Shown here: positions 4,423 to 23,032 of the stretch, in pieces
Layout: the number at the start of each line of letters is the position of its first letter
Position numbering within the stretch: position 1 is the stretch's first letter
DNA from: Minisyncoccota bacterium
Lineage (GTDB): Bacteria; Patescibacteriota; Minisyncoccia; Phycocordibacterales; Zambryskibacteraceae
NCBI GenBank assembly: GCA_020059045.1
Contig: JAGVCW010000021.1
Location: 27,821 to 91,820 of the forward strand
Reading direction: 5' to 3'
DNA length: 64,000 bases
Made by a program: the position numbers and the translations under genes
The notes under the pieces: generated by a model
What the model was told of the DNA's origin: nothing
Database searches by the model: none
What the model saw: the letters and a program-made list of their open reading frames with translations, nothing else

Positions 4423-4506
4423 CCATATATTGTCTTGGTTTTTTGTTTTCGTAGTGATCTTTTCCTCAACATAGAGTATTCTGGAGCGAGAGGCTTTCAT
4501 CCCAAA

Positions 4507-6514: not shown

Positions 6515-6639
6515 CAAGTTGAGAAGTTTAATAAGTTGTATAAATTTAATAAGTTTGAATTCAAAACTTATTAAACTTATAAGCACTAGCCAAGTCAGGC
6601 AGATGCGGAACTTATGTAACTTAATAACTAGTTCATTAC

Positions 6640-7026: not shown

Positions 7027-7035
7027 TAGAGAAAT

Positions 7036-7200
7036 AACGAACGAAGTGAGTATATTTCTCATCATCCCTCCCCACTTTCACTGTTGATATTAAAAGAATT
7101 ACTTAACACTGAATGGCCGATTTTAGCTAAAGTTATTTATTAATGTCGTTAGTGAAAGTGGGGAGGGATCACGATTGTTTCTAACTCGCTTCGCTCATAA
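7036..7200 (+). promoter_or_regulatory. Family-1 structured inter-cistronic spacer upstream of rplC
   Basis: 5' arm AACGAACGAAGTGAG (7036-7050) complementary to 3' arm CTCGCTTCGCTC (7186-7197). Nested 22-bp IR CATCCCTCCCCACTTTCACTG / CAGTGAAAGTGGGGAGGGATC. Confidence 0.55.
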
Positions 7201-7208
7201 GAAAAAAC

Positions 7209-7817
7209 GTGAAATTTATCCTCGCAAAAAAGAATAGAATGTCAGAAGTCTTTACTGAGAGTGGTTTGGTAATTCCTGTTACTATTCTTTCTGCTACTCC
7301 TATGGTGGTAACTCAGATGAAAGATGAGTCGACCGACGGGTACAAAGCTGTACAAGTAGGATTTGGTACACGCAGAGAAAAGAGAATAAACAAGGCGGTA
7401 AAAGGGCATACCAAGGAGCTTGGCAATTTTCTAAAGCTAAAAGAATTTCGCCTCAAGGATGATACATTTGTCCGCGGTGACAAGATAGATGTTTCTGTCT
7501 TTACTGCAGGAGATGTGGTTGAAGTCTCAGCCATTTCTAAGGGTAAAGGTTTCCAAGGTGTCGTGAAGCGCCACGGATTTGCCGGTGGTCCACGAAGTCA
7601 TGGGCAGAAACACTCAGAGCGTGAGCCAGGATCTATCGGCGGAGGATTGCGTACACATGTTCCGAAAGGTATGCGCATGGCAGGGCGAATGGGTGGCGAT
7701 CGTATAACCGTAAGGAATCTTAAAGTTGTCGAGGTTAATCCTACAGAGAATATTATTTTAGTTTCTGGCGCGGTGCCGGGGAGAAGAGGAACGATTGTCG
7801 AAATCAGAGGTAAATAA
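7209..7817 (+). CDS. rplC: 50S ribosomal protein L3
   Basis: GTG start. MKFILAKKNRMSEVFTESGLVIPVTIL...YKAVQVGFG matches L3 N-terminus. Confidence 0.93.
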   Translation: MKFILAKKNRMSEVFTESGLVIPVTILSATPMVVTQMKDESTDGYKAVQVGFGTRREKRINKAVKGHTKELGNFLKLKEFRLKDDTFVRGDKIDVSVFTAGDVVEVSAISKGKGFQGVVKRHGFAGGPRSHGQKHSEREPGSIGGGLRTHVPKGMRMAGRMGGDRITVRNLKVVEVNPTENIILVSGAVPGRRGTIVEIRGK

Positions 7818-7888
7818 GTTGTAGATGTTCTAAATGTTATATATGTCTGACAATTACAACAACTAGAACAATTACAACAATTAGAACC
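7818..7888 (+). repeat. Family-2 inter-cistronic spacer (GTTGTA/GTTCTA ... TGTCTGACA ... TACAAC/TAGAAC)
   Basis: Same motif set recurs before rplD, rplV, the IVS-like gene, rplP, rpmC, rplE and rpsH. Confidence 0.55.
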
Positions 7889-8659
7889 ATGGACACAACA
7901 GTTTATAACCAAAAAGGTGATTCAGTAGGGAAGATTAAGATTCCTGAATCAGTTTTCGGCGTGAAGTGGAATTCTGACATGGTTCACCAAGTTGTGACGT
8001 CCATGACATCTAGTGCGCGCAGAAACACGGCTCATACAAAGACTCGTGGGGAAGTACGGGGAGGAGGCAAGAAGCCTTGGAAGCAGAAGGGTACAGGACA
8101 GGCTCGTCACGGCTCGACTCGTTCACCAATATGGGTAGGAGGAGGTGTGGCACACGGTCCAAGAAACGATAAGAATTATGATCGCAAGGTGAATCGCAAA
8201 ATGAAGACCAAGGCTCTGTTTGCTATACTTTCTAGAAAGCTAAGTGATGGAGAAATAATTTTTATAGATGCGATTACAATGGGAGAAGCGAAGACAAAGA
8301 ATGCAATCAATATTATTTCAAATTTGAGAAAAATTGAGGGTTTCGATAAGATCTTTAATAAAAAGAAAAACAGTGCTCTCATTACTCTTGGCGAGAAAGA
8401 CGATTCTATAACAAGAAGTTTTAAAAACATAGGGAACGTGAGTGTCGATGAAATTCGTAATATAAACCCAGTTACACTTTTAAATTACAAAGCTCTCATC
8501 ATTTTAAATCCAGAAGCGTCTCTTCGATTACTTGAATCAAGGCTTAAGCAGAAAGCTACAGGTGATGCAGAAGGAGTGATAAAGAAAAAGTTTACAGCTA
8601 AAAAGAAAGGAGCTACAACAAAGAAAAAAGTAGTAGCTGCAAAGCCAAAGTCTTTATAA
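7889..8659 (+). CDS. rplD: 50S ribosomal protein L4 with Lys-rich C-terminal extension
   Basis: ...RGGGKKPWKQKGTGQARHGS... L4 signature. Confidence 0.93.
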   Translation: MDTTVYNQKGDSVGKIKIPESVFGVKWNSDMVHQVVTSMTSSARRNTAHTKTRGEVRGGGKKPWKQKGTGQARHGSTRSPIWVGGGVAHGPRNDKNYDRKVNRKMKTKALFAILSRKLSDGEIIFIDAITMGEAKTKNAINIISNLRKIEGFDKIFNKKKNSALITLGEKDDSITRSFKNIGNVSVDEIRNINPVTLLNYKALIILNPEASLRLLESRLKQKATGDAEGVIKKKFTAKKKGATTKKKVVAAKPKSL

Positions 8660-8669
8660 CAACTCATTT

Positions 8670-9050
8670 ATGGCCCTATTTTCAAAAAAACCCAAAGAAA
8701 AAGTTAAGAAAGACTCTCCAAAGAGTGTTTCACCAGAAGGACCTGTCGCATCAATCGAAACGATGGGTGGTACATCTTTTGCCCATATTCTCTTGCAGCC
8801 ACGTATTACGGAGAAAGCATCTCTCAAGGCAGAGAGCAATAATGTTTATGTCTTTGAAGTAAGCCCTCGTGCGTCAAAAAGTGACATAAGGCAGGCAGTG
8901 AAAGAAATTTATAAAGTGTCTCCAGAAAAAGTTTCTGTCGCACGAATCCCAAGTAAAAGTATTGTGGTTCGTGGTAAGCAAGGTGTGCGATCAGGTGGCA
9001 AGAAAGCCTATGTGTACCTGAAGAAGGGAGAGAAGATAGAGGTAATTTAG
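8670..9050 (+). CDS. rplW: 50S ribosomal protein L23 (N-terminal extension)
   Basis: ILLQPRITEKAS...YVFEV...KV conserved L23 core. Confidence 0.9.
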   Translation: MALFSKKPKEKVKKDSPKSVSPEGPVASIETMGGTSFAHILLQPRITEKASLKAESNNVYVFEVSPRASKSDIRQAVKEIYKVSPEKVSVARIPSKSIVVRGKQGVRSGGKKAYVYLKKGEKIEVI

Positions 9051-9056
9051 AAATTC

Positions 9057-9225
9057 AACGAACGAAGTGAGTATGAATTACTTAACCCCAACAAATTTTA
9101 TAGATACACAATTACCCAATTATTCTTGTGTATTTAATAACCACGAGTTATTATCCTTGGGCAATTTCTCAACGATAAAATTTGAGGGGGTCATGATTTT
9201 CTAATCGCTCTGCTCAAGAAAATCT
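9057..9225 (+). promoter_or_regulatory. Family-1 structured spacer upstream of rplB
   Basis: AACGAACGAAGTGAGTATGAATTACTTAACCCC ... GAGGGGGTCATGATTTTCTAATCGCTCTGCTCAAGAAAATCT-ATG. Confidence 0.55.
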
Positions 9226-10065
9226 ATGAAACATTACAAACCAACAACCAAATCGCGAAGACAGATGACCGGTATAGACTACGGGAAAGTTTTGACCGCG
9301 AAAGATCCTTTGAAAAGTCTTACTCATGGAACTAAGCGTGATGTAGGCCGCAACCACCATGGTCGTGTTACAACACGTCACAAGGGAGGTGGGCACAAGC
9401 GTCTTTTCAGAGACATTGATTTTACATACAACAAATTTGATATTCCATTCAAAGTTTTAACAGTAGAATACGATCCAAACAGAACTGGTTTCATTGGCAT
9501 TGTAGTCTACAAGGATGGAGAAAAGAGATATGTCTTACTCCACAAAGGAGCGCGTGTTGGTGATACCTATATAGTTTCAGCTAAGGCTCCAGAGACAGTG
9601 GGCAACCGCCTGCCACTTGGCAAAATCACAGTGGGTACTTTCGTGTACAACGTAGAAGTTAAACCTCGTGGAGGTGCAAGGCTTGCAAGAAGCGCAGGTA
9701 ACTACATAGAAGTTGTTGCAAAGGATGCAGGCTACGTGGATCTTAAAATGCCATCTACAGAAGTAAGAAAAGTTTTAGAGACTTGCTGGGCGACAATCGG
9801 TGAAGTATCAAACGATGAGAACAGACTAGTAAATATCGGAAAAGCTGGAAGAAGTCGCTGGCTTGGTATAAGGCCTACTGTTCGTGGTTCTGCTATGAAC
9901 CCAGTAGATCATCCACACGGTGGAGGAGAGGGTCGTTCAGGACGCGGACGACGTCGAGCAGTGAGTGCATTTGGCAAACCAACAGGCAAGGGGCAGAAGT
10001 CTCGTACTCCAAAGAAATATTCAAACAAATTTATTGTTCGTCGCAGAAAAGTAGGAAAGAAGTAG
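9226..10065 (+). CDS. rplB: 50S ribosomal protein L2
   Basis: MKHYKPTTKSRRQM..., HPHGGGEG motif. Confidence 0.95.
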   Translation: MKHYKPTTKSRRQMTGIDYGKVLTAKDPLKSLTHGTKRDVGRNHHGRVTTRHKGGGHKRLFRDIDFTYNKFDIPFKVLTVEYDPNRTGFIGIVVYKDGEKRYVLLHKGARVGDTYIVSAKAPETVGNRLPLGKITVGTFVYNVEVKPRGGARLARSAGNYIEVVAKDAGYVDLKMPSTEVRKVLETCWATIGEVSNDENRLVNIGKAGRSRWLGIRPTVRGSAMNPVDHPHGGGEGRSGRGRRRAVSAFGKPTGKGQKSRTPKKYSNKFIVRRRKVGKK

Positions 10066-10160
10066 GATGATAAAGAGTAACCTACGACCGACAACACTAC
10101 TGAGTGGAAGCCGAGCTTCCAAAAATGTCTGTATTTCTTGCATAGCAGTGTAAATAAAAA

Positions 10161-10182
10161 AGCCCCGCATGTTTATGGGGCT
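10161..10182 (-). terminator. Rho-independent terminator of the 10187..11155 gene
   Basis: - strand hairpin GCCCCATAAACATGCGGGGC followed by TTTTTT, immediately after its stop codon. Confidence 0.6.
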
Positions 10183-10186
10183 ACGG

Positions 10187-11155
10187 TTATACTGTATCAA
10201 GCACAGCTTGTATCTCTGCGGCCAGTGCATTGGCTTCAGCCGCGTCTCTACTCTCATTTTCCTCAAGTTGAGCAGAGTCAACTGGTACTTCTCCAGGCAG
10301 AAGTGCAAGTTCAGCAAGTCGCAAAGCACCCTCTCTACTCTCGGCTACGATTAGGTATCGGTTTTGGTGGCAAAACACGGCATCTCCTACCCCGGTGATT
10401 TCCTGAAGTTCAAGACCTCTCATACCTGCCCACTCTCTTGGTAACAAGCGAGGCGAAGTTGTATCAGTAGCTCTGTGCCAGCGTTTCACTGTCTGTACGA
10501 GCCAGCCGACCCTTTTGGGGTACACGACGAGGACTATTTCTGGGAAGTTTCTACTTACGTAGTGATCCCAACGGCATGAGTCATCAAGGAGTAAAACCTG
10601 TGGGCTTAAGTGCTTCTCTACAGCTCTCTTGACCACCTCTTCTCCTCGAATCTCTTCTTTTGCGCGGAAGATTGCACCACTTATGTTTGCTCGTGCAAAC
10701 GCAAGAGCAATATCCCAGTCACTTGGCTTAAATGTAGCTACTGCACTTGAAATGCTGTATGGCCGGATTTCACCAGCTTTGTATCTTACCAGAGTATACC
10801 TGTTGTCTGCCGCATCTATGGGTATAACCATGTGCCTCTCAATTTCTTCAGCTATCCGAGTGTCTTGAGCAATTCGCAGTCCGAAATGTTTCCATACAAG
10901 ACCGAAGGCAGCGTATGGAACACCATTTGCTCGTCTACCAGCACCTCCTTGCATATGGTGATCGAAGTCTAGAGTTTCTGGGTTGTACACTCCTCCTACA
11001 TCAATACGTACATTGCTTTCAGCTATTACTCTTGGATCGCGGCTACGCACCACAAGAGCTTCCATGTATTCCGGAAGCAATTGTAAGGCCGCGATCGCGT
11101 ACACCTCGTCTGCATGGATGGGTCCGTCGTGGGTCACAATTTGCACAGACAACAC
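10187..11155 (-). CDS. MYG1/UPF0160-family metal-dependent exonuclease
   Basis: THDGPIHADEVYAIAALQLLPEY N-terminus and DFDHH motif typical of MYG1. GC ~50%, above neighbouring r-protein genes. Opposite strand to the operon. Confidence 0.75.
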   Translation of the reverse strand: MLSVQIVTHDGPIHADEVYAIAALQLLPEYMEALVVRSRDPRVIAESNVRIDVGGVYNPETLDFDHHMQGGAGRRANGVPYAAFGLVWKHFGLRIAQDTRIAEEIERHMVIPIDAADNRYTLVRYKAGEIRPYSISSAVATFKPSDWDIALAFARANISGAIFRAKEEIRGEEVVKRAVEKHLSPQVLLLDDSCRWDHYVSRNFPEIVLVVYPKRVGWLVQTVKRWHRATDTTSPRLLPREWAGMRGLELQEITGVGDAVFCHQNRYLIVAESREGALRLAELALLPGEVPVDSAQLEENESRDAAEANALAAEIQAVLDTV

Positions 11156-11369
11156 CTCAAAATGGGAGTGAAATGCTTCTATAACAAAGGGCAGTACAAA
11201 ATACAGAGTACATATTTTTAGAAAATAGTCAAGATTTGCTAGATTTGCAATAAGTCTATGAGTTTATGGGTATTAGTTATTTTCTCACAATATAAGTGCT
11301 TATTTACTCCCAAAATATGGCCTAAGATAGCCCTTTTTGGGGATTTATGTAATTTAAATCAAAAAGTTC

Positions 11370-11397
11370 TTGACAAATAAATTGTATATGTTATACT
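11370..11397 (+). promoter_or_regulatory. Sigma70-like promoter for the 11480 gene
   Basis: TTGACA at 11370-11375, 16-nt spacer, TG-n-TATACT at 11392-11397. Confidence 0.5.
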
Positions 11398-11479
11398 ATA
11401 GGTAGTAGTAAGTAGTACATTTCAGTTGCAGTTCCCCGTTCAAGGTAGTCCACTCAGCACACCTTATGGAGGTATTACC

Positions 11480-12199
11480 ATGGCTAGCAAGAAGAAGCAG
11501 CAGGTAGCAACGAGCCCGGTTCCCAGCATGCAGGCCGCGGTTGCCACGATGGCGGAAGAGGCTCCCGCCGAGAGCAGGCAGTTCTCTTCGAGCCAGCCGA
11601 AGTGGTCCCCGACTCAGTTCATTGAGACCCTGGGGAAGATCAAGGAAGAACTCCCGGCCGCCGTGTCGAACTTCAAGATCGTGAAGAAGATCGTGGGTCT
11701 CGAGATGGACGGCAAGGATGAGATGGCCTTTCGGCAGATGATTCAGCTCGCCGGGGCCGTTGCTACCAAAGCATCCCAGAAGGCGGACGCGGAAGACCCA
11801 TCAAAGGTGTATCTGGATGCCAGGAAGGTCCAGGCTGCGCTCACCGCATGTGAGCGTGCCAATTCCAATCTGGCACGCACCTTCGACAGGTACATCGGGA
11901 ACTGGCGGAAGCGGGCTGACACCATGATGTCGAACGCAAGGCGCAAGGACCCGGACGTGATCGAGCGCGAGAGTGACACAATCGCGGACAACATGGAGGC
12001 ACTGGATGAGGCACTTGAAGGAAAGAAGCCTCGTCAAGAGGTCCTCGAGATCTACAACAGGACCTTCACCCATCTTCGCGAGCTCTCAAAGGAAGCAACG
12101 GCGCTTGCTACTGAAGCTTCGAGGAGAGAGCAGATCGAAACGATCGGCTCACTCGGGGACGACATCCTCGACTCTCTCGCGGAACTCGACAGCATCTAA
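11480..12199 (+). CDS. High-GC hypothetical alpha-helical protein
   Basis: ATG 11480 (MASKKKQQ...) with GGAGG SD. GC ~58% against ~40% in flanks. No recognisable family. Confidence 0.6.
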   Translation: MASKKKQQVATSPVPSMQAAVATMAEEAPAESRQFSSSQPKWSPTQFIETLGKIKEELPAAVSNFKIVKKIVGLEMDGKDEMAFRQMIQLAGAVATKASQKADAEDPSKVYLDARKVQAALTACERANSNLARTFDRYIGNWRKRADTMMSNARRKDPDVIERESDTIADNMEALDEALEGKKPRQEVLEIYNRTFTHLRELSKEATALATEASRREQIETIGSLGDDILDSLAELDSI

Positions 12200-12215
12200 G
12201 TGCTGCGAGCAGTAG

Positions 12216-12258
12216 TACCCCACGAAAAACCCCCAAGGTATCGTGGGGTTTTTCTTTT
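12216..12258 (+). terminator. Rho-independent terminator
   Basis: CCCCACGA...TCGTGGGG hairpin followed by TTTTTCTTTT. Confidence 0.65.
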
Positions 12259-12472
12259 ATTGCAATTGCGGAGAATACCATGACAGCTAGGCTGCATGGG
12301 ATGAATCCGCAAATACATACTATATGTCGGCGGAGCCGACTCCTCTTGCAACAAAGTTTGCCCTGATGCCTCGTCCTGCTACTCGCCGAGGCTTTGCGAG
12401 GGAATAGCTTACTGCGATTATAGGACGAGGCCAATTTTATTAAGATAATAATCTTTCCTGTATAATTTATAT

Positions 12473-13441
12473 ATGGAATACAAAACTATTATTTTGCCTA
12501 CTAGGCCTCAGGTGGATACTGTTATTTCTATATTCGTATTAAAGCACTTTGGTGAAAGTTTCTTCCCTGGTATTAAGACTGCTAGCTATGAGTTCATGTC
12601 CAACTTACCAGCTGGTGCGAGCGAAGAGAGCTTGGCAGAGGAAGGAAGGCTCCCAATAGATATTGGTGGTGGACGATTTGATCATCACAACAAAGAGGAG
12701 AAAACCACTGTTCTAAATCTTTTGACTAGCTTTCTTGCTCAAGGGAATAATCCTGCTTTAATAAAACTCAAGAAGTTTGTAGAAAGAGATGATTTTTATG
12801 GTAAAGGAATAATATCCTCTGACCCCCTTGATCGTGCTTTCGGTTTGCCCGGGCTTATTGCTTGTCTTAATAAAAAGTATTCAAGTAACCCAGCGAAAGT
12901 GCTGGATATAATTCTTCCAGTTGTTGATGCGTACTACGAAGAAGAAGAGAAGAGGGCAATAGGAATGCCTCTTGAACTTAAGGAGAAAATAGCAAATGGT
13001 AAAGCTAGAGTATTTAATACAGAGCAGAGAGGCAGAAAACTTAAATGCATTTTCATAGAAAGCGATAACATAAGTCTACCGGGTTTTCTTCGATCTAAGA
13101 TTGGAGGGGAGCACGATGTGATTGCAATAAGGCTATCGTCTGGACACACAAATATTCTTACGAGTCTCAAAAATACAGTTGATTTGCGTTCACTCGCAGT
13201 GCTTATTCGCTTACAAGAAGCCGAGGCGCGAGGTGTGAAGCTAGATGGAGTGCCGGAAGATTTAGCAGTACCGGGTAAAATCGATGAAGTACTTAATTGG
13301 TACTACGATACAGCTACTAACTCTTTACTAAATGGTGGTCCTAATCCAAGTGAGACCGACCCAACGGGAATAGCATCTTTCGAATTTGAAAAAATAATGG
13401 AAATAGGGCTCTCTGAGAAACTCTGGTCTCCATCACGATAA
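12473..13441 (+). CDS. MYG1/UPF0160-like paralog, low GC, N-terminal His motif replaced
   Basis: DIGGGRFDHHNKEE aligns with the DHH motif of the 10187 gene. N-terminal TRPQVDTV occupies the FHADE position. TATAAT lies 13 nt before the ATG, so the mRNA may be leaderless. Confidence 0.55.
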   Translation: MEYKTIILPTRPQVDTVISIFVLKHFGESFFPGIKTASYEFMSNLPAGASEESLAEEGRLPIDIGGGRFDHHNKEEKTTVLNLLTSFLAQGNNPALIKLKKFVERDDFYGKGIISSDPLDRAFGLPGLIACLNKKYSSNPAKVLDIILPVVDAYYEEEEKRAIGMPLELKEKIANGKARVFNTEQRGRKLKCIFIESDNISLPGFLRSKIGGEHDVIAIRLSSGHTNILTSLKNTVDLRSLAVLIRLQEAEARGVKLDGVPEDLAVPGKIDEVLNWYYDTATNSLLNGGPNPSETDPTGIASFEFEKIMEIGLSEKLWSPSR

Positions 13442-13564
13442 GCCAAATACCCTTTATATTAGCCACGTAATGGTCTATAAAAATCCTTGACTTTTATAGA
13501 CCATTATGCTATTATTATACAAGAACAGCAGTTTCACACACCGACCCTTTCACAAGGAGTTTGC

Positions 13565-14155
13565 ATGGTAAAAAGCAAGGAAGTCGTCGACCCCGCATTT
13601 GTCGGAGAAGTGGAAGCGGCGCTCGTGTACCTCACGGTGCCCGGCAATCTGAAGTATCTTATACCCGGGTGGGTAAAAGAGGCGGACTTCTCGAATACTC
13701 CAAAGTCCGAGCGCCAGATGGCCCCACGATCCGATAAGTTGTTCCAAGTTGCACAAGCGAGGATGGATGGGGTGCTCGGGGATCTTGCCGGCGCTGGTTT
13801 CCTCCCCTCTGAAGTGTTTTATCTGAATCGGGATGGTGGCGCGCGGCGGGTTCGTATCACATGCAAGCGCTTTGGCGCACCGCTGACACTCGATCAGGTG
13901 CAGTCTCTCATTCCCCTCACTACCGAGCGGATATGGGATGTGATGGCTCATCGGACGGCTGCTACCAGGAACATTCCATGGGAGCACATTTCGATCAATG
14001 CCGGACGCCCCGATCATGCTCCAGAAGGGGGATTCGAAGCGGTTCGCGTGGTCGAAGGTCGAGTCTCGGTAGTTTCCCTTCTCAACACGGACGAGCTGCG
14101 GAAGGCGTCTGAGTCCATCATCGGCCTCCTCGAATCGCTGCAGATAACACGCTAA
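13565..14155 (+). CDS. High-GC hypothetical protein
   Basis: ATG 13565 preceded by AAGGAG SD, in frame with ORF 13487..14155. GC ~58%. Confidence 0.55.
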   Translation: MVKSKEVVDPAFVGEVEAALVYLTVPGNLKYLIPGWVKEADFSNTPKSERQMAPRSDKLFQVAQARMDGVLGDLAGAGFLPSEVFYLNRDGGARRVRITCKRFGAPLTLDQVQSLIPLTTERIWDVMAHRTAATRNIPWEHISINAGRPDHAPEGGFEAVRVVEGRVSVVSLLNTDELRKASESIIGLLESLQITR

Positions 14156-14349
14156 TCCTCCTTGCGATAACAGGGGGGTCAACGAGCCAGACAGAAATGT
14201 CTGGCTCTTTTCTATTTAATTGACAACAAGTGTCTATTTCTATAATATCTTGAGAAGCTCATCCGAGCTTTTTGTATTCTAATTTTAGTTTTAGTAGCTG
14301 GGCAGGAGTAACCCTTCGACGAGCTCAGGGTAAAAATCTAAAGATTTTT

Positions 14350-14709: not shown

Positions 14710-14813
14710 CTTAAATGTTCTAAGTGTTGTATGTGTTATACATGTCATACAACTTCAACAATTCAAACAAATAAAACAACTAGAACATCTATAACAATTA
14801 AAACCGCGAATTT

Positions 14814-15212
14814 ATGAGCGAAATAACTGCACAACTAAATGATTACAGACAGGCACCTCGTAAGGTGCGAGTTGTTGCAGGTCTTGTAAGAGGCAAGTCG
14901 GTCAAAGATGCTTTGGTGTCACTTGAATTTTTGCCTAAGCGTGCAGCAGATCCAATCTCAAAGCTTATAAGATCAGCGGTTGCAAACGCTCGATCTCAGA
15001 ACATTGAAACCGAGAATCTTATTCTAAAGGAACTACGTGTAGACGGAGGAAAAATATTATATCGAAGACGCAGCGCATCCCGCGGCCGAGCACCAGCTAT
15101 ACGAAAGAGGACAAGCCACATTCTCGTTGTCTTATCGGAAGACACCAAGAAGAAGTTGAAAAAGCAAAATGCAAAAAGTAAAAGTAATTCAGACGTAAGC
15201 GCTAAAAAATAA
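14814..15212 (+). CDS. rplV: 50S ribosomal protein L22
   Basis: MSEITAQLNDYRQAPRKVRVVAGLVRGKSV... Confidence 0.92.
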   Translation: MSEITAQLNDYRQAPRKVRVVAGLVRGKSVKDALVSLEFLPKRAADPISKLIRSAVANARSQNIETENLILKELRVDGGKILYRRRSASRGRAPAIRKRTSHILVVLSEDTKKKLKKQNAKSKSNSDVSAKK

Positions 15213-15248
15213 TTTTAAATTTTGATTTTTAAATTTTAATTTATATTC

Positions 15249-15929
15249 ATGAGTCATACAGTTCACCCATTTTCACACAGACTAGGTATCATAAGAGATT
15301 GGAGATCTCGATGGTTTGGTACAAAGAAGAATTACAAAGAATTTCTTCGCGGTGATCTTTTGATACGAGCATTTCTAGAAGGAAAGCTTCGTGGTATGTA
15401 CGTAAGTACTATTGAAATCGAGCGTAATGAAAAAGTTCTGCGCATTATAGTTGAGACTTCTCGACCCGGTATGATCATTGGTCGTAGTGGCGATGGAGCA
15501 GTCCGGCTCAAAGACCAGATCGTAGCCATGCTTCGCCGAGAGAAGGTGGGTCGTGCTAACGAAGAGGTTCGTCTCGATATTAAGGAGGTTAGATCTCCAG
15601 AATCAAATGCTCACATTGTTTCTCAGATGATAGGAGAGGGACTTGAGAAAAGACTTCCATACAGAAGAGTTGTGAAGCAAATGGTAGAAAAGGTTATGGC
15701 CAATCGTGATGTGAAAGGGGTAAAGGTAACTGTTGCAGGAAGACTCGGGGGCGCAAGTATTGCACGATCAGAGACAAGAAAGCTTGGTAGAATTCCTCTT
15801 CAGACATTTCGTGCTGATGTAGAGTTCGCACGGCACGAAGCTCGTCTCCCATATGGCAATCTGGGTATAAAAGTTTGGATTTACAAAGGTGACATTTTCT
15901 CCACCAAGGTTGGTGGAGAAAAGTCATAA
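15249..15929 (+). CDS. rpsC: 30S ribosomal protein S3
   Basis: MSHTVHPFSHRLGIIRDWRSRWF..., KH domain. Confidence 0.95.
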   Translation: MSHTVHPFSHRLGIIRDWRSRWFGTKKNYKEFLRGDLLIRAFLEGKLRGMYVSTIEIERNEKVLRIIVETSRPGMIIGRSGDGAVRLKDQIVAMLRREKVGRANEEVRLDIKEVRSPESNAHIVSQMIGEGLEKRLPYRRVVKQMVEKVMANRDVKGVKVTVAGRLGGASIARSETRKLGRIPLQTFRADVEFARHEARLPYGNLGIKVWIYKGDIFSTKVGGEKS

Positions 15930-15956
15930 TTGTTCTACTTGTTATAGTTGTTCTAT

Positions 15957-16325
15957 ATGTCAGAGAGATTTCAAGGATATAGGTTTGAAAAATTGGAAGT
16001 TTGGCAGGTGGGAATGCGTATAGTAAGTAAGGTATATTCAATTACGAAAAGGTTTCCTAAAGACGAGACCTACGCCCTGTCTGACCAGTTAAAAAGAGCA
16101 GCCACTTCGATAGTTTTAAACTTGGCAGAAGGCTCAGGACAGCCAACAAAAAAGTTATTCTCTCTTTATATTGAACGTGCCAAGTCCTCAACACTTGAAT
16201 GTGTGGCTTGTACAAAAATTGCTGTTCAGGAAAAACTTGTAGAACCTGATGAGGTTAAATCTTTGGAAGAGCTACTTGCGGAAGAGTATTTTAAACTTAT
16301 TGCGCTAGCAAAATCTATGAGGTAA
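15957..16325 (+). CDS. Four-helix-bundle protein (23S rRNA intervening-sequence protein family, TIGR02436/PF05635-like)
   Basis: FEKLEVWQVGMRIVSKVYSITKRFPKDETYALSDQLKRAATSIVLNLAEG matches the family consensus (FE.L.vWQka..l...iy..t..FPk.E.y.L.sQ.rRAa.S...NIAEG). Confidence 0.75.
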   Translation: MSERFQGYRFEKLEVWQVGMRIVSKVYSITKRFPKDETYALSDQLKRAATSIVLNLAEGSGQPTKKLFSLYIERAKSSTLECVACTKIAVQEKLVEPDEVKSLEELLAEEYFKLIALAKSMR

Positions 16326-16396
16326 GATCTTCCTACTCTAGCTTGTAACCTATCTAACACCTATAACAACTAGAACATATATAACACTTACAACCA

Positions 16397-16813
16397 ATGC
16401 TTTTCCCAAAAAAAGTAAAATATCGAAAATGGCACACTATGCGCAAGAACCCCAAGAAGGTGGGTTCTGCTACTCGTGGTATAGAAGTTAACTTCGGATC
16501 CTATGGTCTGAAAGCTCTTGAGTATGGCCGTATTAAGTCGAACCAGATTGAGTCAGCAAGAAAGGTTATGTCTCGCTCACTCGGAAAGACTGGCAAGATT
16601 TGGATCAGGATTTTCCCAGACATGCCATACACAGCGAAACCTGCCGAAGTTAAGCTCGGTAAAGGAAAAGGTGATCTCCAAGGTTACGTCGCTCCAGTTC
16701 ACGCAGGCAGAGTACTTTTTGAAGTAGATGGAGTAACGGAGGCTGTGGCAAGAGAGTCGCTCCGTAAAGCAGGAACAAAGCTACCAGTGAAAACAAGGAT
16801 AGTGGCTAGGTAA
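16397..16813 (+). CDS. rplP: 50S ribosomal protein L16
   Basis: MLFPKKVKYRKWHTMRKNPKK... Confidence 0.95.
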   Translation: MLFPKKVKYRKWHTMRKNPKKVGSATRGIEVNFGSYGLKALEYGRIKSNQIESARKVMSRSLGKTGKIWIRIFPDMPYTAKPAEVKLGKGKGDLQGYVAPVHAGRVLFEVDGVTEAVARESLRKAGTKLPVKTRIVAR

Positions 16814-16903
16814 ATAGCGCTTGTTGTAAATGATGTATATGTTCTAAGTGTCTGACAAATACAACATCTACAACATTTAAAAACATTTACAACAAAATAT
16901 AGT

Positions 16904-17095
16904 ATGTCTAAGGAACTCAAAGAAAAAAACGAAAAGGAATTAAGTAAAATGCTTGCGGATAATCAAGAGAATTTACGCTCTTTTCGATTTGGTATCGCAG
17001 GTTCGAAGAATCGCAATGTGAAAGAGGGACGGGCAATTCGCAAAGACATTGCAAGGATCCAAACTGAGATGAGTGCTCGCAAGAAGGCTAAATAG
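16904..17095 (+). CDS. rpmC: 50S ribosomal protein L29
   Basis: MSKELKEKNEKELSKMLADNQENLRSFRF... Confidence 0.88.
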   Translation: MSKELKEKNEKELSKMLADNQENLRSFRFGIAGSKNRNVKEGRAIRKDIARIQTEMSARKKAK

Positions 17096-17142
17096 ACAAG
17101 AGTCTGAAAATATGTAGTATAAACACACTAACTTATAGAGAG

Positions 17143-17382
17143 ATGAGTGCAATATCCACAAAAAATAAAGAATTTACAGGTACAGTAGTGTCAGACAAAA
17201 TGAAAGACACGATTGTTGTTAGTGTGGAGAGGTTTACGAAGCACCCTCGTTACGGCAAGTACATCCGAAGCCGTCGTAAGTTCAAGGTTCACGATGTAGG
17301 AAATACGAAAAAGATTGGAGAAAAAGTAGTATTCATTGCTTGTCGCCCAATTTCAAAAGATAAGAGATTCAGAGTTATTTAA
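17143..17382 (+). CDS. rpsQ: 30S ribosomal protein S17
   Basis: FTGTVVSDKMKDTIVVSVERFTKHPRYGKYIRSRRKFKVHD. Confidence 0.92.
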   Translation: MSAISTKNKEFTGTVVSDKMKDTIVVSVERFTKHPRYGKYIRSRRKFKVHDVGNTKKIGEKVVFIACRPISKDKRFRVI

Positions 17383-17558
17383 GGAGCTTGGCGACTATAA
17401 ATAACCTGACCCCCCATCATTTTTAACAATGAAACCTGAAACATTAAAAAAAGATATTGAAAAACATTTCTATTATAGTATCCGATGAAACATATTTTAA
17501 AAATGATGAGGGATGGTGATTTTCAAAAACTCACTATCGCTCGTTAAGAAAATCAACC
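17383..17558 (+). promoter_or_regulatory. Family-1 structured spacer upstream of rplN
   Basis: TGACCCCCCATCATTTTT ... AAAAATGATGAGGGATGG IR, then CTCACTATCGCTCGTTAAGAAAATCAACC-ATG. Confidence 0.55.
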
Positions 17559-17930
17559 ATGATCCAACCCCGCTCAATAGTAAAAATAGCAGACAACTCA
17601 GGCGCCAAAATCGGTAGAGTTTTCAAGGTGCTTGGTGGGTCTAAGAAGAGATACGCACGTATTGGTGATGTGGTGGTATTGTCGGTTCAGGTAGCACAAC
17701 CTAGAAAGTCAGTGAAAAAGAAAGACATTTTGTACGCGGTGGTAGCACGTCAGAGAACACCATTTCGCAGACAAGATGGTTCCTACATTCGTTTCGATGA
17801 GAATGCAGTGATAATTGTTGATAAAGCAAAGCACGAGCCTATCGCAGGACGTGTTTTCGGACCGATCCCAAGAGAGCTTGGCGAGATGGGATTCCAGCAG
17901 GTAATATCATTAGCACAAGAGGTAGTTTAG
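17559..17930 (+). CDS. rplN: 50S ribosomal protein L14
   Basis: MIQPRSIVKIADNSGAK... Confidence 0.95.
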   Translation: MIQPRSIVKIADNSGAKIGRVFKVLGGSKKRYARIGDVVVLSVQVAQPRKSVKKKDILYAVVARQRTPFRRQDGSYIRFDENAVIIVDKAKHEPIAGRVFGPIPRELGEMGFQQVISLAQEVV

Positions 17931-18149
17931 AAAATCAAGGAGTGAAACGACTATGATTTACTTAACCCCACCTAAATTTTGCATCGAAGACAGAAGCGCA
18001 GTGCGCGGCCGAGTAGGCCAAGCGGTCATGGGCGAAGCGCTGCGCCTCGAAAGGTTTGTGACTATTCGTCACTCGCACTTCTTGTGGTAATGTAAAAGCA
18101 AAATTTAGGCGGGGTCATGATTTTCCAATCGCTCCGCTCAAAAAAATCA
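17931..18149 (+). promoter_or_regulatory. Family-1 structured spacer upstream of rplX, with GC-rich insert
   Basis: ACTTAACCCCACCTAAATTTT ... AAAATTTAGGCGGGGTCATGATTTTCCAATCGCTCCGCTCAA 15-bp IR, plus a GC-rich hairpin at 18005-18055. Confidence 0.55.
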
Positions 18150-18455
18150 ATGAAAATAAAAAGGGATGACAACGTAATAGTGATAGGAGGCAAGGACAGA
18201 GGCAAAACTGGTAAAGTTTTGCGTGCTTTTCCTCGTGAATCGAAAGTTGTCATCTCGGGCGTAAACTTGAAAAAACTTCATAAGCGTCCCACAAAATCCG
18301 GGCAGAAGGGACAAGTCGTTGAGCAAGCTGCACCCATACATGTATCAAATGTTATGATTGTGGATCCAAAATCTGGGAAGAGAACAAGAGTTCTACGCAA
18401 GATGGAAGGAGACAAGAAAGTCAGAGTAGCAAAAAGTAGCGGCACCACGCTGTAA
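18150..18455 (+). CDS. rplX: 50S ribosomal protein L24
   Basis: ATG 18150 gives MKIKRDDNVIVIGGKDRGKTGKV, the canonical L24 N-terminus. Confidence 0.9.
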   Translation: MKIKRDDNVIVIGGKDRGKTGKVLRAFPRESKVVISGVNLKKLHKRPTKSGQKGQVVEQAAPIHVSNVMIVDPKSGKRTRVLRKMEGDKKVRVAKSSGTTL

Positions 18456-18532
18456 AGTTATAAATGTTGTAATTGTTGTAGTGTCAGACATTTATAACAT
18501 CTACAACATTTAGAACAATTTCAACATACAAA

Positions 18533-19081
18533 ATGCAAAGCATAAAAGAAAAAACTCAAAAAACGTTTTCATCACTTAAGGCCACTCGTGGTTATAAAAA
18601 TCCCATGCAATCTCCACGTATTGTCAAAGTTGTTGTGAGTGTAGGAACGGGCTCATTTAAGGATGCGAAGAAAAAGGAACTTGCCCTGGATCGTCTTACG
18701 AAGATTACCGGCCAGCGCCCATCAGTACGCGGTGCAAAGCAGTCAATTGCCGCATTTAAAGTCCGACAGGGAGACCCGGTAGGACTTGCAGTCACACTTC
18801 GTGGCAAGAGAATGTACGATTTTCTAGATAAGTTAATCCATGTGGCCCTACCTCGTACCAAGGACTTCAGAGGAGTATCTTCTAAAGCTATTGATAAGAT
18901 GGGCAATTACACTCTAGGTATTAAGGAGCACACTATTTTCCCAGAGACAGCAGACGAGGAACTTAAAGACGTTTTTGGGCTAGCAATAACAATAGTTACG
19001 ACCGCAAGAACGAAGGAGGAGACCAAAGAATTTCTAGATTATCTAAGTTTCCCTTTCAAAAAAACAGAAGAGAAGAAGTAA
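18533..19081 (+). CDS. rplE: 50S ribosomal protein L5
   Basis: RIVKVVVSVGTG...KITGQRP...TLRGKRMYDFLDKLI. Confidence 0.95.
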   Translation: MQSIKEKTQKTFSSLKATRGYKNPMQSPRIVKVVVSVGTGSFKDAKKKELALDRLTKITGQRPSVRGAKQSIAAFKVRQGDPVGLAVTLRGKRMYDFLDKLIHVALPRTKDFRGVSSKAIDKMGNYTLGIKEHTIFPETADEELKDVFGLAITIVTTARTKEETKEFLDYLSFPFKKTEEKK

Positions 19082-19184
19082 ATCCGTGGAAGCGAAGCGT
19101 GGAAGCCGAGCTTCCACGGAACATACTGTGTTCAGAATCTTTAAATGCTTGTAAACTTCATATAAATTTGTTTCTATAATAGAT

Positions 19185-19391
19185 ATGACAGAAGAATCAC
19201 TAAACTTAAACGAGACAAAGGAGAAGAGCGCGTTTTCCATGGGCGATCATTCAGATTTTATTGCAAGAGAGCTTGACCAAGTGAATAGGGAGTTACTCGA
19301 TGTAAGTTTAGACATACCAGATGGGGAGGTATCAGGTTTGGAAGAAGTGTATGATGCGATGATAAGGGATCTAAAAATCGAAAATAAATAA
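19185..19391 (+). CDS. Small acidic hypothetical protein
   Basis: 68-aa ORF inside the operon, between rplE and rpsN. Confidence 0.4.
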   Translation: MTEESLNLNETKEKSAFSMGDHSDFIARELDQVNRELLDVSLDIPDGEVSGLEEVYDAMIRDLKIENK

Positions 19392-19410
19392 TTCAAGTTC
19401 TCACTTTCGT

Positions 19411-19752
19411 ATGAACAAATTTTTATCTTTAGTAACGCGTATTCTGGGTGAGCTAGAATTTTCGCAAGAAAACAAAGAAAAAGTTGCATATGATCTCAAT
19501 CGCCTAATTATGACAAAGGTTGTCATAGCACTTCTTGATGAGGCCCCAGAGAATGTTCAAACTGAAGTTGAAAAACTTTTAAGTGCTGGTGAAACACTTG
19601 AAGTTGCAAATATCCTCAAGTCTACATTTACGACTGAAAGATTCGAAGAAGTAAGCCTTCATATTACTCGAGATGTGGTTCACAAATACTTAAGCGAATT
19701 GTTTGCAAAAACTCACAAGGAAAACAAAGAGAAACTTGTCGCTTCACTCTAA
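19411..19752 (+). CDS. Small hypothetical protein
   Basis: 113-aa ORF followed by hairpin TGTGCTGGGCTCTAATAGCACA plus T-run. Confidence 0.45.
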   Translation: MNKFLSLVTRILGELEFSQENKEKVAYDLNRLIMTKVVIALLDEAPENVQTEVEKLLSAGETLEVANILKSTFTTERFEEVSLHITRDVVHKYLSELFAKTHKENKEKLVASL

Positions 19753-19794
19753 TATTTGTGCTGGGCTCTAATAGCACAGTACTTTTGTATAAAA

Positions 19795-20085
19795 ACAAAC
19801 CCGCTCCTTGGTGAGGGCGGGCGATAGTGGGAAGAAAACTTCCAATGGTTTGGAAACTGCATGAAACCGGGTACTTCCTCCCTTTGTCTAGTCAATGGCG
19901 ATTGGGCGCCTATGACATCCTCTTGGCTGTAAACCTCGTAACTCACCATGAGTTACGGCAGGCTAACGCCAACTAAGCTGAGGACTTCGACTGGGCTGTC
20001 TCTGCACGTGGTCCCGAATGAGACGCCTAGTGAGCGAATGACCCGAACGCAGACTACCCGGTTTCACACTTTGTAATGAACTTAT
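19795..20085 (+). ncRNA. Candidate RNase P RNA-like structured ncRNA (rnpB-like), with a related downstream GC-rich segment to ~20300
   Basis: No ORF. GC-rich. GAAACCGGGTA (19859-19869) is the exact reverse complement of TACCCGGTTTC (20057-20067), a P4-like pseudoknot. 3' segment GCCTAGTGAGCGAATGACCCGAACGCAGACTACCCGGTTTCAC resembles E. coli M1 RNA GCCUAGAUGAAUGACUGUCCACGACAGAACCCGGCUUAUC (CR-V). Local hairpins throughout. Confidence 0.4.
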
Positions 20086-20592
20086 ATCTTGCACTCTCTT
20101 TCGAGAGATGATTTCGTACCCTGGGGCGGCGAGCGGGCCGAAGCGCCGTCACGACCCCAGGGACTTCCTCGATATTTAACCTCTGATGCCGAGTACCGCA
20201 TCGGAGGCGATCCCCGTTAGGACGTAAGCGAATGCACCGGTTTAGGGCACATCACTGTATCCGAGCCCGCATGGGGGAGCTTGTGAGCTTATGTATATTA
20301 TAGCATGTACACGTTATTTGTCAAGGAGTTTCTCATTATCTTTTCTGTGACACATGAAATATGGCTAAAACTAAGGCTTATTTGAATATCACTTTAAAGT
20401 AGAGGGAAATTTGTTGGCAAGTTCTTGAAATTATCCGCTTAACCCTTATTTTATTGACTTTATACGGCTCAATTGCTAAGCTGTTGCAAAGCTTTTGGAA
20501 GCTTTTTTCTTTACTTAATCGCTTCATTCGTCAATATTCTTCCTTTTGAGGGCTTTCGCTCATGCGAGGTCGCTAGAGGATAAACAATATTT

Positions 20593-20778
20593 GTGGCCAA
20601 GAAATCAGTTATAGCAAGATCAGTTAAAAAGCCTAAATTCTCGACTCGCATCGTGAGGCGTTGTTTCCGTTGTGGTCGAAAGCGTGGCTATATGCAAGAT
20701 TTTGATCTATGTAGAATATGTTTTCGCGAATTTGCAAATGAAGGCAAAATCCCGGGCGTTAAGAAATCAAGTTGGTAA
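20593..20778 (+). CDS. rpsN: 30S ribosomal protein S14 type Z (zinc-binding)
   Basis: 61 aa with CFRCGR...CRICFRE Cys pairs. Confidence 0.92.
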
Positions 20779-20881
20779 TAAAAGATTGTTCTAGATGTTG
20801 TAATTGATATACATGTTATAAATGTCTGACAAATACAACAACTAAAACATTTTGAAACAAATATAACATCTCAAACATTAC

Positions 20882-21265
20882 ATGGATCCCATCGCTGACA
20901 TGATAATAAGAATCAAGAATGCAGGAGAATCCCGCAAGGATACAGTGGCTTTTCCATATTCAAATTTGAAAGCAAGCATCTGCAAAACTCTTCTAGATAG
21001 TGGATACATAAAATCTCTTGTTATAAAAGGGAAGATTGCCAAATCAATAGAAGTCGGACTTATTTACAACGGCAAGTTCCCAAAGATCCAAGGTGTGAAG
21101 AGACTTTCGAAGCCTTCTCGTCGTCTATACAAGGCCTCAAGTGATCTACGGCCGGTTAAGAGAGGGTATGGATCTCTCATCATGTCTACTCCGAAGGGAA
21201 TAATGGTAGGAGAGCATGCCCGTAAGTCTAAAGTCGGTGGTGAGGCATTATTTGAAATATGGTAA
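20882..21265 (+). CDS. rpsH: 30S ribosomal protein S8
   Basis: MDPIADMIIRIKNAG... Confidence 0.95.
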   Translation: MDPIADMIIRIKNAGESRKDTVAFPYSNLKASICKTLLDSGYIKSLVIKGKIAKSIEVGLIYNGKFPKIQGVKRLSKPSRRLYKASSDLRPVKRGYGSLIMSTPKGIMVGEHARKSKVGGEALFEIW

Positions 21266-21353
21266 TGGCTTTGTCTAAATTTTACGAACGAAGTGAAATA
21301 AAATTTAGTAACAAAACATTAACTCACTATCGTTCGTTAAGAAAATCAACCAC
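21266..21353 (+). promoter_or_regulatory. Family-1 structured spacer upstream of rplF
   Basis: ACGAACGAAGTGA-(loop)-TCACTATCGTTCGT stem (13 bp), then TAAGAAAATCAACCAC-ATG. Confidence 0.6.
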
Positions 21354-21887
21354 ATGAGCAGAATCGGAAAAGGAAAAATAGATATCCCAGAGAAAACTGA
21401 AGTTATTCTTCTTGCAGACACTGTCGTGGTAAAGGGGCCATTAGGTGAATTGTCTCACAAAGTTCACTCAGATATAGGTATTGAGATTGCTTCCGGAAGC
21501 GTAACATTTGTTCCCAAAGTTAATACTCTTGAAGCAAATGCTCTCTGGGGCACGACGTCTTCTCACTTGTCCAATATGATAGATGGAGTGAACAAACCTT
21601 TTGAAAAGAAATTAGTTTTAGAAGGCATTGGATATAAGGTAGAGGTAAAGGGAGATAAGATTCATCTTGCACTAGGCTTTTCTCATCCTGTAGAAGTTTT
21701 AATACCAAAAGGCTTGAATGTAAAAGTTGAGAAAAATGCCGTAACGATATCTGGCATTAGCAAGGACGATGTCGGGAGTTTCACAGCACGTCTGCGTGAC
21801 TTGAAGAAGCCGGAACCTTACAAAGGCAAAGGATTCAAATATTTTGGCGAAGTGATCAAGATTAAGCAGGGTAAAAAGTCAGTATAA
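21354..21887 (+). CDS. rplF: 50S ribosomal protein L6
   Basis: MSRIGKGKIDIP..., duplicated L6 domain. Confidence 0.93.
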   Translation: MSRIGKGKIDIPEKTEVILLADTVVVKGPLGELSHKVHSDIGIEIASGSVTFVPKVNTLEANALWGTTSSHLSNMIDGVNKPFEKKLVLEGIGYKVEVKGDKIHLALGFSHPVEVLIPKGLNVKVEKNAVTISGISKDDVGSFTARLRDLKKPEPYKGKGFKYFGEVIKIKQGKKSV

Positions 21888-21975
21888 TGGCTTTGTCTAA
21901 ATTTTATGAACGAAGTGAAATAAAATTTAGTAACAAAACATTAACTCACTATCGCTCGTTAAGAAAATCAACCAC
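21888..21975 (+). promoter_or_regulatory. Family-1 structured spacer upstream of rplR (near-identical copy of 21266-21353)
   Basis: 88 bp with 3 mismatches relative to the rplF leader. Confidence 0.6.
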
Positions 21976-22329: not shown

Positions 22330-22351
22330 TCAAATATTAATAATCAAATCA

Positions 22352-23005: not shown

Positions 23006-23032
23006 TTTACATCATCCAAACCATTTCCGCCC

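Follow-up and report, generated by a model that had tools for sequence, protein, structure and literature searches.

The window analysed here, a stretch of 64,000 nucleotides, belongs to the Patescibacteria (candidate phyla radiation, CPR) near Candidatus Zambryskibacteria / Paceibacteria, and it carries an S10/spc ribosomal protein gene cluster whose genes are repeatedly separated by hairpin-forming spacers. The top matches of its ribosomal protein S3 are metagenome-assembled genomes of that group with 84-75% identity. By Pfam the genes rpsJ, rplC, rplD, rplW, rplB, rpsS, rplV, rpsC, a 23S_rRNA_IVP gene, rplP, rpmC, rpsQ, rplN and rpsN were identified, and the remaining genes of the cluster were named from gene order and tblastn; the L30 gene is absent between rpsE and rplO. 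A sequence-only reading of this DNA had proposed that structured spacers of two repeat families punctuate almost every junction. Both families were recovered at the places it gave, and the actual count is 12 of the 20 junctions from rpsJ to rplO, with spacers of 71-219 nt. Short and plain junctions are found at rplD>rplW, rplV>rpsC, rpmC>rpsQ, rplR>rpsE and rpsE>rplO, and inserted genes occupy rplB>rpsS (4.3 kb; 10066-14349) and rplE>rpsN (1.5 kb; 19082-20592).

Family 1 lies upstream of six genes, rplC, rplB, rplN, rplX, rplF and rplR, all of them named in the sequence-only reading, and its consensus is ACGAACGAAGTGA ... TCACTATCG(C/T)TCGTT-AAGAAAATCAACC-ATG. Four copies are long forms with an inner helix of 17-29 bp and a variable apex, and two are short forms of 88 nt (Table 1). 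The layout runs from AAAATTAACGAGCGAAGCGACTATAAT over 12-14 nt to ACCC-helix-GGGT, GGTGATTTT(C/T), ACTCACT..CGTTCGTTAAGAAAATC.ACC and the ATG, and the blocks GA(C/G)TAT, GGTGATTTT and TCGTTAAGAAAATC are conserved. The arms of the inner helix are located at 7059-7093 / 7140-7174 in the rpsJ>rplC copy, at 9085-9119 / 9157-9191 in the rplW>rplB copy and at 17965-17982 / 18098-18115 in the rplN>rplX copy, the last with a nested GC-rich apex. Between copies the sequence of this helix is fully replaced and the pairing is kept, with 92% of cells paired. Double changes are seen in 8 of the 11 pairs and the covariation score is 0.61 versus 0.16 in shuffles, none of 500 shuffles reaching it and slid partners giving 0.15 or less, in an alignment whose arms were anchored on their own complementarity. 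The covariation by which the sequence-only reading had proposed to judge its structures is thereby seen in the family 1 inner helix. In the outer helix the pairing register shifts between copies; differences such as GGAGTGA/TCGCTCC versus ACGAACGAAGTGA/TCACTATCGTTCGT look compensatory. The copies before rplF and rplR, earlier noted as near-identical, share 98% identity across 95 nt, stop and start codons included, and on this identity the rplF>rplR copy arose by recent duplication of the one at rpsH>rplF.

Family 2 is a hairpin in which GTTNTA+3 nt units on the left and TANAAC+3 nt units on the right enclose the core TGTC(T/A)GACA. The unit arms of GTT and AAC type reported previously are borne out, and their period is strictly 9 nt. 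The two-unit motif TANAACNNNTANAAC occurs 23 times in the window versus 0.18 expected, with 22 of the 23 inside the cluster. In the copy at rplC>rplD, which extends from directly behind the stop codon to 1 nt short of the ATG, 3 GTTNTA and 4 TANAAC units flank TGTCTGACA. A sixth copy is split by the 23S_rRNA_IVP gene (spacer parts 15930-15956 and 16326-16396); the junctions previously assigned to family 2 stand, with the correction that a single split element accounts for both the IVS-like gene and rplP. Since family 2 is missing from 80 related loci, covariation among orthologues was impossible and complementarity at the level of the units was used instead. The variable base of the unit is matched across the arms by 208 Watson-Crick and 25 G-U pairs of 265, with all four pair types present, and by 10 of 14 when the window is taken alone. 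Four of the six window elements have more strict units in the right arm than in the left one and two have equal numbers, and in co-oriented metagenome spacers TANAAC exceeds GTTNTA on the sense strand in 23 cases versus 3 (p = 9e-5). This excess makes family 2 polar with respect to the mRNA, though the palindrome itself is not. A derivation of the loop ATGTC(T/A)GA from the start of the enclosed gene, ATGTCAGAG, was suggestive only (3 of 5 copies) and was not used.

Table 1. Spacer elements and associated features of the cluster, in window positions (MFE, minimum free energy; z, score relative to shuffles).
Feature	Junction or site	Positions	Strand	Details
Third periodic hairpin	tuf>rpsJ	6515-6639	+	AAGTTnnnn / AACTTnnnn units, 9-nt period; MFE -32.4, z -5.2
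Family 1, long form	rpsJ>rplC	7027-7208	+	MFE -68.3, z -9.0; 3' module match 7165-7204
Family 2 hairpin	rplC>rplD	7818-7888	+	z -4.8
Family 1, long form	rplW>rplB	9051-9225	+	3' module match 9187-9226
GC mini-hairpin GGAAGCCGAGCTTCC	40 nt past rplB stop	10106-10120	+	
Promoter-like site and leader hairpin	before rpsS	14220-14274	+	TTGACA-17-TAATAT (10/12), GAAGCTC-ATCC-GAGCTT-TTTT
Family 2 hairpin	rpsS>rplV	14710-14813	+	extra TANAAC-type units on start-codon side
Full-length IVS-like cassette	rpsC>rplP	15927-16390	+	464 nt; right arm ends 2 nt before rplP ATG
23S_rRNA_IVP / four-helix-bundle gene	within the cassette	15957-16325	+	122 aa; Pfam PF05635 E 5.5e-27
Family 2 hairpin	rplP>rpmC	16814-16903	+	z -4.0
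Family 1, long form	rpsQ>rplN	17383-17558	+	3' module match 17510-17561, E 4e-11
Family 1, long form	rplN>rplX	17931-18149	+	MFE -76.2, z -5.5
Family 2 hairpin	rplX>rplE	18456-18532	+	z -5.3
GC mini-hairpin GGAAGCCGAGCTTCC, second exact copy	20 nt past rplE stop	19101-19115	+	within CCGTGGAAGC...GCTTCCACGG
Family 2 hairpin	rpsN>rpsH	20779-20881	+	z -4.1
Family 1, short form	rpsH>rplF	21266-21353	+	outer helix only, ACGAACGAAGTGA / TCACTATCGTTCGT
Family 1, short form	rplF>rplR	21888-21975	+	98%-identical duplicate of rpsH>rplF copy

Comparison with relatives shows that these spacers have been added to the cluster. At each of the 11 family 1 and family 2 junctions compared, the genes of the three closest relatives (S3 77-84% identical) are 1-11 nt apart, and the spacers are for that reason insertions and not ancestral leaders. 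Many more distant relatives carry hairpin spacers of 55-260 nt at other junctions, made of their own units (CTAATT, AAAGTT, ATTCGTA and others); several hairpin families coexist in a genome, and one locus (L052) is punctuated at nearly all junctions. Punctuation of the S10/spc cluster thus recurs, with patchy occurrence, in this part of the CPR and is not the oddity of one contig. In 166 spacers of relatives the dominant period was 7 nt in 24 and 9 nt in 8, with none in shuffles, and the idea of a universal 9-nt period was dropped since 7 nt is the more frequent. The expectation of conservation held in part: family 1 is found in 13 relatives, and the family 2 motif in 0 of 80 related S10/spc loci. 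The 1-11 nt of the closest relatives, the differing junctions of family 1 and the presence of family 2 in unrelated operons speak against conserved regulatory spacers, as implied by the sequence-only reading. The spacers look like insertions that were possibly put to use, rather than an ancestral operator system.

The distribution of family 1 is strict within the loci searched, which were all centred on ribosomal protein clusters. A hidden Markov model (HMM) of its 3' module matched the window six times, exactly at the six copies and all on the + strand. Over the window and 13 relatives it gave 29 matches at 11 different junctions, every one of them (29/29) on the sense strand and ending at the start codon of a ribosomal protein gene; none was found in the locus flanks, in the metagenome loci with family 2 or in the remaining ~50 kb of the window. 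As nhmmer searches showed, relatives carry family 1 at partly different junctions. The rplN>rplX junction also bears it in L031, L040, L043 and L065, and the start of the rpsH>rplF copy, TGGCTTTGT, is common to the spacer at the same junction in L005. In some relatives the left motif overlaps the final codons and stop of rpsC, and in L004 and L005 family 1 is situated in the rpsN 5' leader downstream of a real promoter. Rfam, searched with the whole window at the gathering threshold and with 6400-23700 at E <= 1, returned no match to family 1 or 2 apart from one spurious miRNA hairpin. To judge from these sequences, family 1 would be a separate module, restricted to ribosomal protein genes in a Zambryskibacteria-like group and copied between junctions.

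Two further observations concern sequences related to family 1. The motif GAGCGAAGCGA / GCGAAGC is found at family 1 left ends (7037-7052 and 9058-9073) and after rplE (19088-19100), and it is also embedded in right arms of family 2 type on unrelated metagenome contigs (loci L008, L089, L102, L122, L129 and L200); GCGAAGC is a very stable mini-hairpin sequence. The 259-nt infC>rpmI spacer, between genes on the minus strand, contains a perfect 22-bp hairpin TACCCCACACTTACTTGGCAGT / ACTGCCAAGTAAGTGTGGGGTA (36428-36474) whose base ACCCCAC...GTGGGGT resembles the family 1 inner helix, and it has no family 1 flanks and no HMM match.

Family 2 is of a different nature, and its split copy links it to the intervening sequences (IVSs) of rRNA genes. 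The arms of this cassette (15927-15975 / 16342-16390) are 49 nt each and 76% complementary, with a duplex energy of -33.4 kcal/mol. The enclosed gene encodes an IVS protein (IVP) that scores 94.5 bits versus a Pfam cutoff of 33.8 and matches XCC0516 (PDB 2GSC) with E 3.4e-12. At E <= 1e-5 it has 142 homologues; among the 120 matches listed, identity is 36-75%, besides the identical P0001, and those with names are from Kaiserbacteria, Paceibacterota and other Patescibacteria. In all eight other IVP contexts examined in Patescibacteria (LemA-IVP-HtpX, n=6; DsbA-IVP-TrxB, n=1; after a hydrolase gene, n=1), GTTNTA units precede the IVP ATG and TANAAC units follow the stop, ending 1-10 nt, in most cases 1-4 nt, before the next start. 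The interval from lemA to an htpX-like M48 peptidase gene is a conserved IVP slot in many Patescibacteria (L082-L085, L206-L211, L213-L216), kept across IVP proteins only 59-70% identical to that of the window; the gene may have occupied it for long, or the slot may be a hot spot of insertion.

The same arms also occur alone. At one LemA>HtpX junction, the usual site of the IVP gene, a GTTCTA array is present with no open reading frame (ORF), and a pattern scan found gene-less family 2 hairpins on at least 120 metagenome contigs, where chance matches are estimated at roughly a dozen and most matches are unmistakable GTTGTA/TACAAC 9-nt hairpins. Among the matches listed, 51 are between co-oriented ORFs, 23 between convergent or divergent ones and 15 within ORFs, these last probably by chance. 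Sampled gene-less hairpins have operon partners as neighbours (pstB>phoU, pstS>pstC and moaA>moeA), and family 2 is also present in the S10/spc clusters of distant relatives (L089, L101, L102, L112, L178, L193 and L194), of which L102 has most junctions punctuated by several hairpin families, family 2 included. The presence of the same arms around IVP homologues and, without the gene, in unrelated operons places family 2 in a family of IVS-like cassettes, of which it would be the gene-less form colonising mRNAs.

The likeness to rRNA IVSs extends to size, arms and distribution. The IVS of Coxiella 23S rRNA is 428 nt long, contains the S23p ORF and is excised by RNase III, for which 23S rRNA IVS stems are substrates (PMC4990558). 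IVP domain ORFs are further known from insertions in CPR 16S and 23S rRNA genes (10.1101/2024.02.27.582315), and the domain is also found between cmr3 and cmr2 (PMC3936711). Like the IVSs of Leptospira and Coxiella (PMC4990558), the cassette is an insert of ~460 nt in a highly transcribed RNA, with inverted-repeat arms pairing into a long stem that encloses a PF05635 ORF; short versions of ~70-100 nt lacking the gene exist as well, and the occurrence among relatives is patchy, as expected for horizontal or selfish spread. In contrast to these, which lie in helix 25 or 45 of 23S rRNA, the host here is an mRNA between pairs of protein genes, rpsC and rplP in the window, and the arms are 9-nt periodic GTTNTA/TANAAC arrays ending at the next start codon.

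Folding and start context were analysed for both families. Folding each spacer against mononucleotide shuffles supported the sequence-only reading for most of them (z -4 to -9), with predicted stems of 18-29 bp, and less so for rpsS>rplV, rpsQ>rplN and rplF>rplR (z -0.6 to -1.9). Shine-Dalgarno (SD)-like motifs precede 1 of 22 window genes and 3.8% of 1430 ribosomal protein starts of relatives versus 15% of random 17-mers, a depletion of about four-fold (6640-24888; loci L001-L080). The 20 nt upstream of the starts have 10.7% G and the last bases are typically A/C-rich (ACAAC-like). From these sequences the whole clade appears to lack SD-led initiation for its ribosomal protein genes. In front of the ATG, native short spacers often have TAACAAC, TACAACT or CAAC, which amounts to one unit of the family 2 right arm. 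Both families end in a G-poor tail adjoining the start codon, and 8-28 nt of G-poor sequence were left unpaired before the ATG in 5/5 of the folded family 2 spacers.

A comparable start context is offered by the TAACTGA heptamer direct repeats of Beggiatoaceae, cyanobacteria and Bacteroidetes (PMC4679880). These too are short tandem units directly before SD-less start codons, over-represented before translation genes including ribosomal protein operons, and missing from close relatives with equal gene order. They differ in being direct repeats with no opposing arm, in their other 7-nt sequence and in having no known ORF. Multi-copy imperfect palindromes between co-oriented genes with strain-variable presence, as observed here, are also characteristic of REP/BIME, ERIC/IRU, Correia (CREE), RUP and BOX elements. 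Repeats of the REP/ERIC/Correia type are co-transcribed, a feature which the spacers of the window probably share, and some Correia elements are RNase III substrates. The spacers differ from them in the internal periodicity of the arms, in the concentration of copies in one operon cluster (in this window; family 2 is dispersed over unrelated operons in other genomes), and in the ties of one family to a specific small ORF and of the other to ribosomal protein genes only. Neither a target-site duplication nor a transposase or RAYT, as would be expected of MITE/REP-like elements, was found. In full-text literature searches no account of hairpin-punctuated ribosomal protein operons in CPR was found, nor a description of GTTGTA/TACAAC arms of this periodicity or of mRNAs that carry IVP cassettes flanked by such arms; rRNA IVSs, palindromes of the REP/ERIC/Correia type and the TAACTGA heptamers (PMC4679880) are the nearest described.

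We consider the chances evenly balanced that the spacers represent two lineage-restricted families of self-folding hairpin inserts which supply start context and are cut by RNase III. In such a scheme the insert would be transcribed within the operon mRNA and fold back on itself, and by this folding the upstream stop and the downstream start codon would stay close. The 3' end, consisting of extra UACAAC-type units or of AAGAAAAUCAACC, would supply a G-poor, unpaired, SD-less start context, through which the downstream gene may keep being translated. Copies would have spread between junctions, and the 98%-identical rplF/rplR pair suggests that such copying has been recent. The stems of 18-29 bp would probably be cut by RNase III, by analogy with 23S rRNA stems, and yield gene-sized fragments. 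Taken alone this step is slightly less likely than not; the identity of family 2 as the arm pair of an IVS-type cassette, the RNase III sensitivity of 23S IVS stems and the length of the stems argue for it.

Several observations weigh against this interpretation. The antisense RNA folds more stably than the sense RNA in 9/12 window spacers and in 99 versus 65 spacers of relatives (n=164; p = 2.5e-5), the mismatches in the mRNA are A-C and not G-U, and a G-U pair is found in only 1/198 cells of the family 1 helix. The weaker sense fold means that the G-U signature of selection on an mRNA fold is missing, and the use of G-U asymmetry as support for a sense-RNA fold had to be rejected, the result being opposite. 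The A-rich, G-poor skew of the sense strand near starts may explain the antisense advantage; given the near-absence of G-U, it could be in the DNA that complementarity is kept, or an exceptionally stable stem could be what is selected, in place of ordinary selection for an RNA fold. Filled and empty sites show no target-site duplication, and no transposase-like gene was noted among the called genes near the elements examined. The arms may travel with the IVP gene, or the gene may enter pre-existing hairpins. In the window family 2 is confined to the ribosomal protein cluster, an outcome not foreseen by a purely generic mobile element, and the strict ribosomal protein specificity of family 1 fits a shared operator at least as well.

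That family 1 is such an operator, a portable leader recognized by one trans-acting factor (a ribosomal protein or another RNA binder) with family 2 as an unrelated passenger, seems unlikely. The 29/29 sense matches adjoining start codons at S10/spc junctions only are what it would predict, although the loci searched confine this specificity to ribosomal-protein-centred regions, and it would account for the conserved sequence blocks, the covarying helix and the position behind a real promoter in the rpsN leader of L004 and L005. It agrees poorly with the absence of family 1 from the closest relatives, with its patchy presence at 11 different junctions and with a short form that dispenses with the inner helix, and no candidate binding protein was identified. 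Autoregulatory leaders of ribosomal protein operons (S10/L4, spc/S8, L20; PMC3616713) are likewise structured RNAs directly before ribosomal protein genes, but each is one fixed site per operon that mimics the rRNA site of one protein. Family 1 shares with such leaders a structure supported by covariation; in contrast to them it is present in multiple copies per operon at 11 interchangeable junctions, lacks a fixed orthologous position and matches no curated leader family in Rfam.

Distinctly unlikely is the explanation that the spacers are functionless by-products, grown from short native ACAAC-type spacers by replication slippage and hairpin-templated copying and tolerated under weak selection. 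It draws on the strict periodicity (9 nt here, 7 or 9 nt in relatives), on native empty sites that already read TACAAC or TAACAAC, on the patchy presence among relatives and on a sense fold no better than the antisense one, with G-U nearly absent. Yet slippage does not foresee that the same arms are kept around IVP proteins just 59-75% identical and in differing gene contexts, that family 2 is polar with respect to transcription, or that family 1 has conserved non-repetitive blocks in strict placement. Elements spanning exactly from stop codon to start codon, and 12/12 window copies within the cluster, are equally difficult to reconcile with it.

Transcription punctuation, in which the family 1 inner helix and a U-run form an internal terminator or attenuator and a TATAAT-like box forms an internal promoter for small transcription units, with 3' ends expected after GGTGAUUUU and primary 5' ends after the boxes, is very improbable: the GGTGATTTT(C/T) conserved after the helix, the TAT(A/G)AT box 12-14 nt before it, two weak promoter-like matches (9/12) on family 1 (7027-7056 and 17928-17957) and the clade's terminator and promoter breaks at rpsJ>rplC, rplB>rpsS and rplE>rpsN would suit it, but the box precedes the helix, the wrong order for a terminator followed by a promoter, the U-run begins 5-6 nt past the helix and not immediately behind it, the terminator scan called 0/12 of the elements, promoter-like matches are no commoner than in shuffles (32 vs 30.3), family 2 stems are AU-rich with no U-run, and ribosomal proteins require equal dosage.

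The interpretation as self-folding inserts can be extended to a single system, in which the IVP protein and the 9-nt GUUGUA/UACAAC arms would colonise any heavily transcribed RNA, be it rRNA or operon mRNA. The IVP protein would act on the arms, as an oligomer on the repeated units, for copying, processing or protection; the gene-less hairpins would be non-autonomous and depend on the system in trans, and family 1 would be a second, domesticated module acting as common leader for ribosomal protein cistrons in an SD-less lineage. This extension is speculative and we regard it as a long shot. If it is true, PF05635 would gain its first function, and its first substrate, beyond diversity-generating retroelements.

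The cluster had been treated as one operon, and this is contradicted both by the promoter-like site and leader before rpsS and by terminator and promoter breaks in relatives. Nearly all 80 relatives have long junctions at rpsJ>rplC, rplB>rpsS and rplE>rpsN, and where such breaks are short in relatives they contain a terminator, a promoter of the TTGACA-N17-TAGTAT type and a small AAGCT...AGCTT-UUUU leader hairpin. In this clade the S10/spc cluster comprises more than one operon, and the site at 14220-14274 is its conserved restart point. The GC mini-hairpin reported after rplB and rplE was indeed found in exact form at both, and nowhere else in a scan of the window; relatives carry an intrinsic terminator at each of these sites, the first ending the rplC-rplB block. 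Hairpins of AAAGTT-type units, as in the third periodic hairpin before rpsJ, are present in relatives L029, L033 and L050.

The two large insertions contain further features. That at rplB>rpsS, a position of 45-8512 nt in relatives, includes, on the minus strand, a gene for a MYG1-family exonuclease (10187-11155, PF03690 E 1e-50), and also three ORFs with no Pfam match. Two ORFs, 11426-12199 and 13487-14155, lie in a GC-richer part (0.46-0.48 in 2-kb windows vs ~0.41), each with a near-consensus promoter-like site upstream (11370 and 13487) and a terminator-like hairpin downstream. The insertion 10066-14349 looks like foreign DNA parked in an ancestral operon break. The insertion at rplE>rpsN has a GC-rich stretch of ~500 nt on the minus strand (19784-20297), headed by a perfect minus-strand consensus promoter TTGACA-16-TATAAT with an upstream TG (20324->20297) and closed by a terminator-like hairpin and U-run at its 3' end (~19784-19830). 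It matched no Rfam family (best E 0.057, to a suhB-like terminator only) and had no homologue in 212 fetched loci, and a 66-aa ORF on the minus strand (19749-19949) overlaps its 3' part; it may be an undescribed structured RNA.

Outside the junctions discussed, the normally tight fusA-tuf junction of the str/S10 region is also opened in this genome, with five ORFs lacking a Pfam match at 2172-4923 between fusA (38-2101) and tuf (5249-6514). The rpsJ product has a Lys-rich N-terminal extension of ~30 aa (6640-6735), and those of rplD (8520-8659) and rpsS (14590-14709) continue past the Pfam domains in Lys/Ala-rich C-terminal stretches. Two tandem repeats with sequences unrelated to the spacer families were noted, one of 7/14-nt period where the adk ORF begins (25647-25734) and one of 9-nt period, encoding PST repeats, in a 1461-aa surface-protein-like ORF (31809-31917). 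The transfer-messenger RNA gene is located at 41241-41678, and ARAGORN predicted a tRNA-Ile with anticodon TAT and a tRNA-Ser with anticodon ACT (48802-48876 and 61097-61186, minus strand), anticodons unusual in bacteria.

No gene array of bacteria is more conserved than the S10/spc cluster, and its tight spacing is thought to give equal dosage by translational coupling. In this genome and in related Patescibacteria most of its junctions accommodate hairpin inserts of 70-460 nt, which implies that coupling either survives a folded spacer or is dispensable in SD-less organisms. These elements also bear on operon prediction and intergenic analysis in metagenome-assembled CPR genomes. Family 1 is a candidate new RNA motif, and its distribution makes the shared-operator hypothesis directly testable. 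The link between family 2 and IVP extends intervening sequences from rRNA to mRNA and provides a defined candidate nucleic-acid partner for PF05635, a large family of still unknown function.

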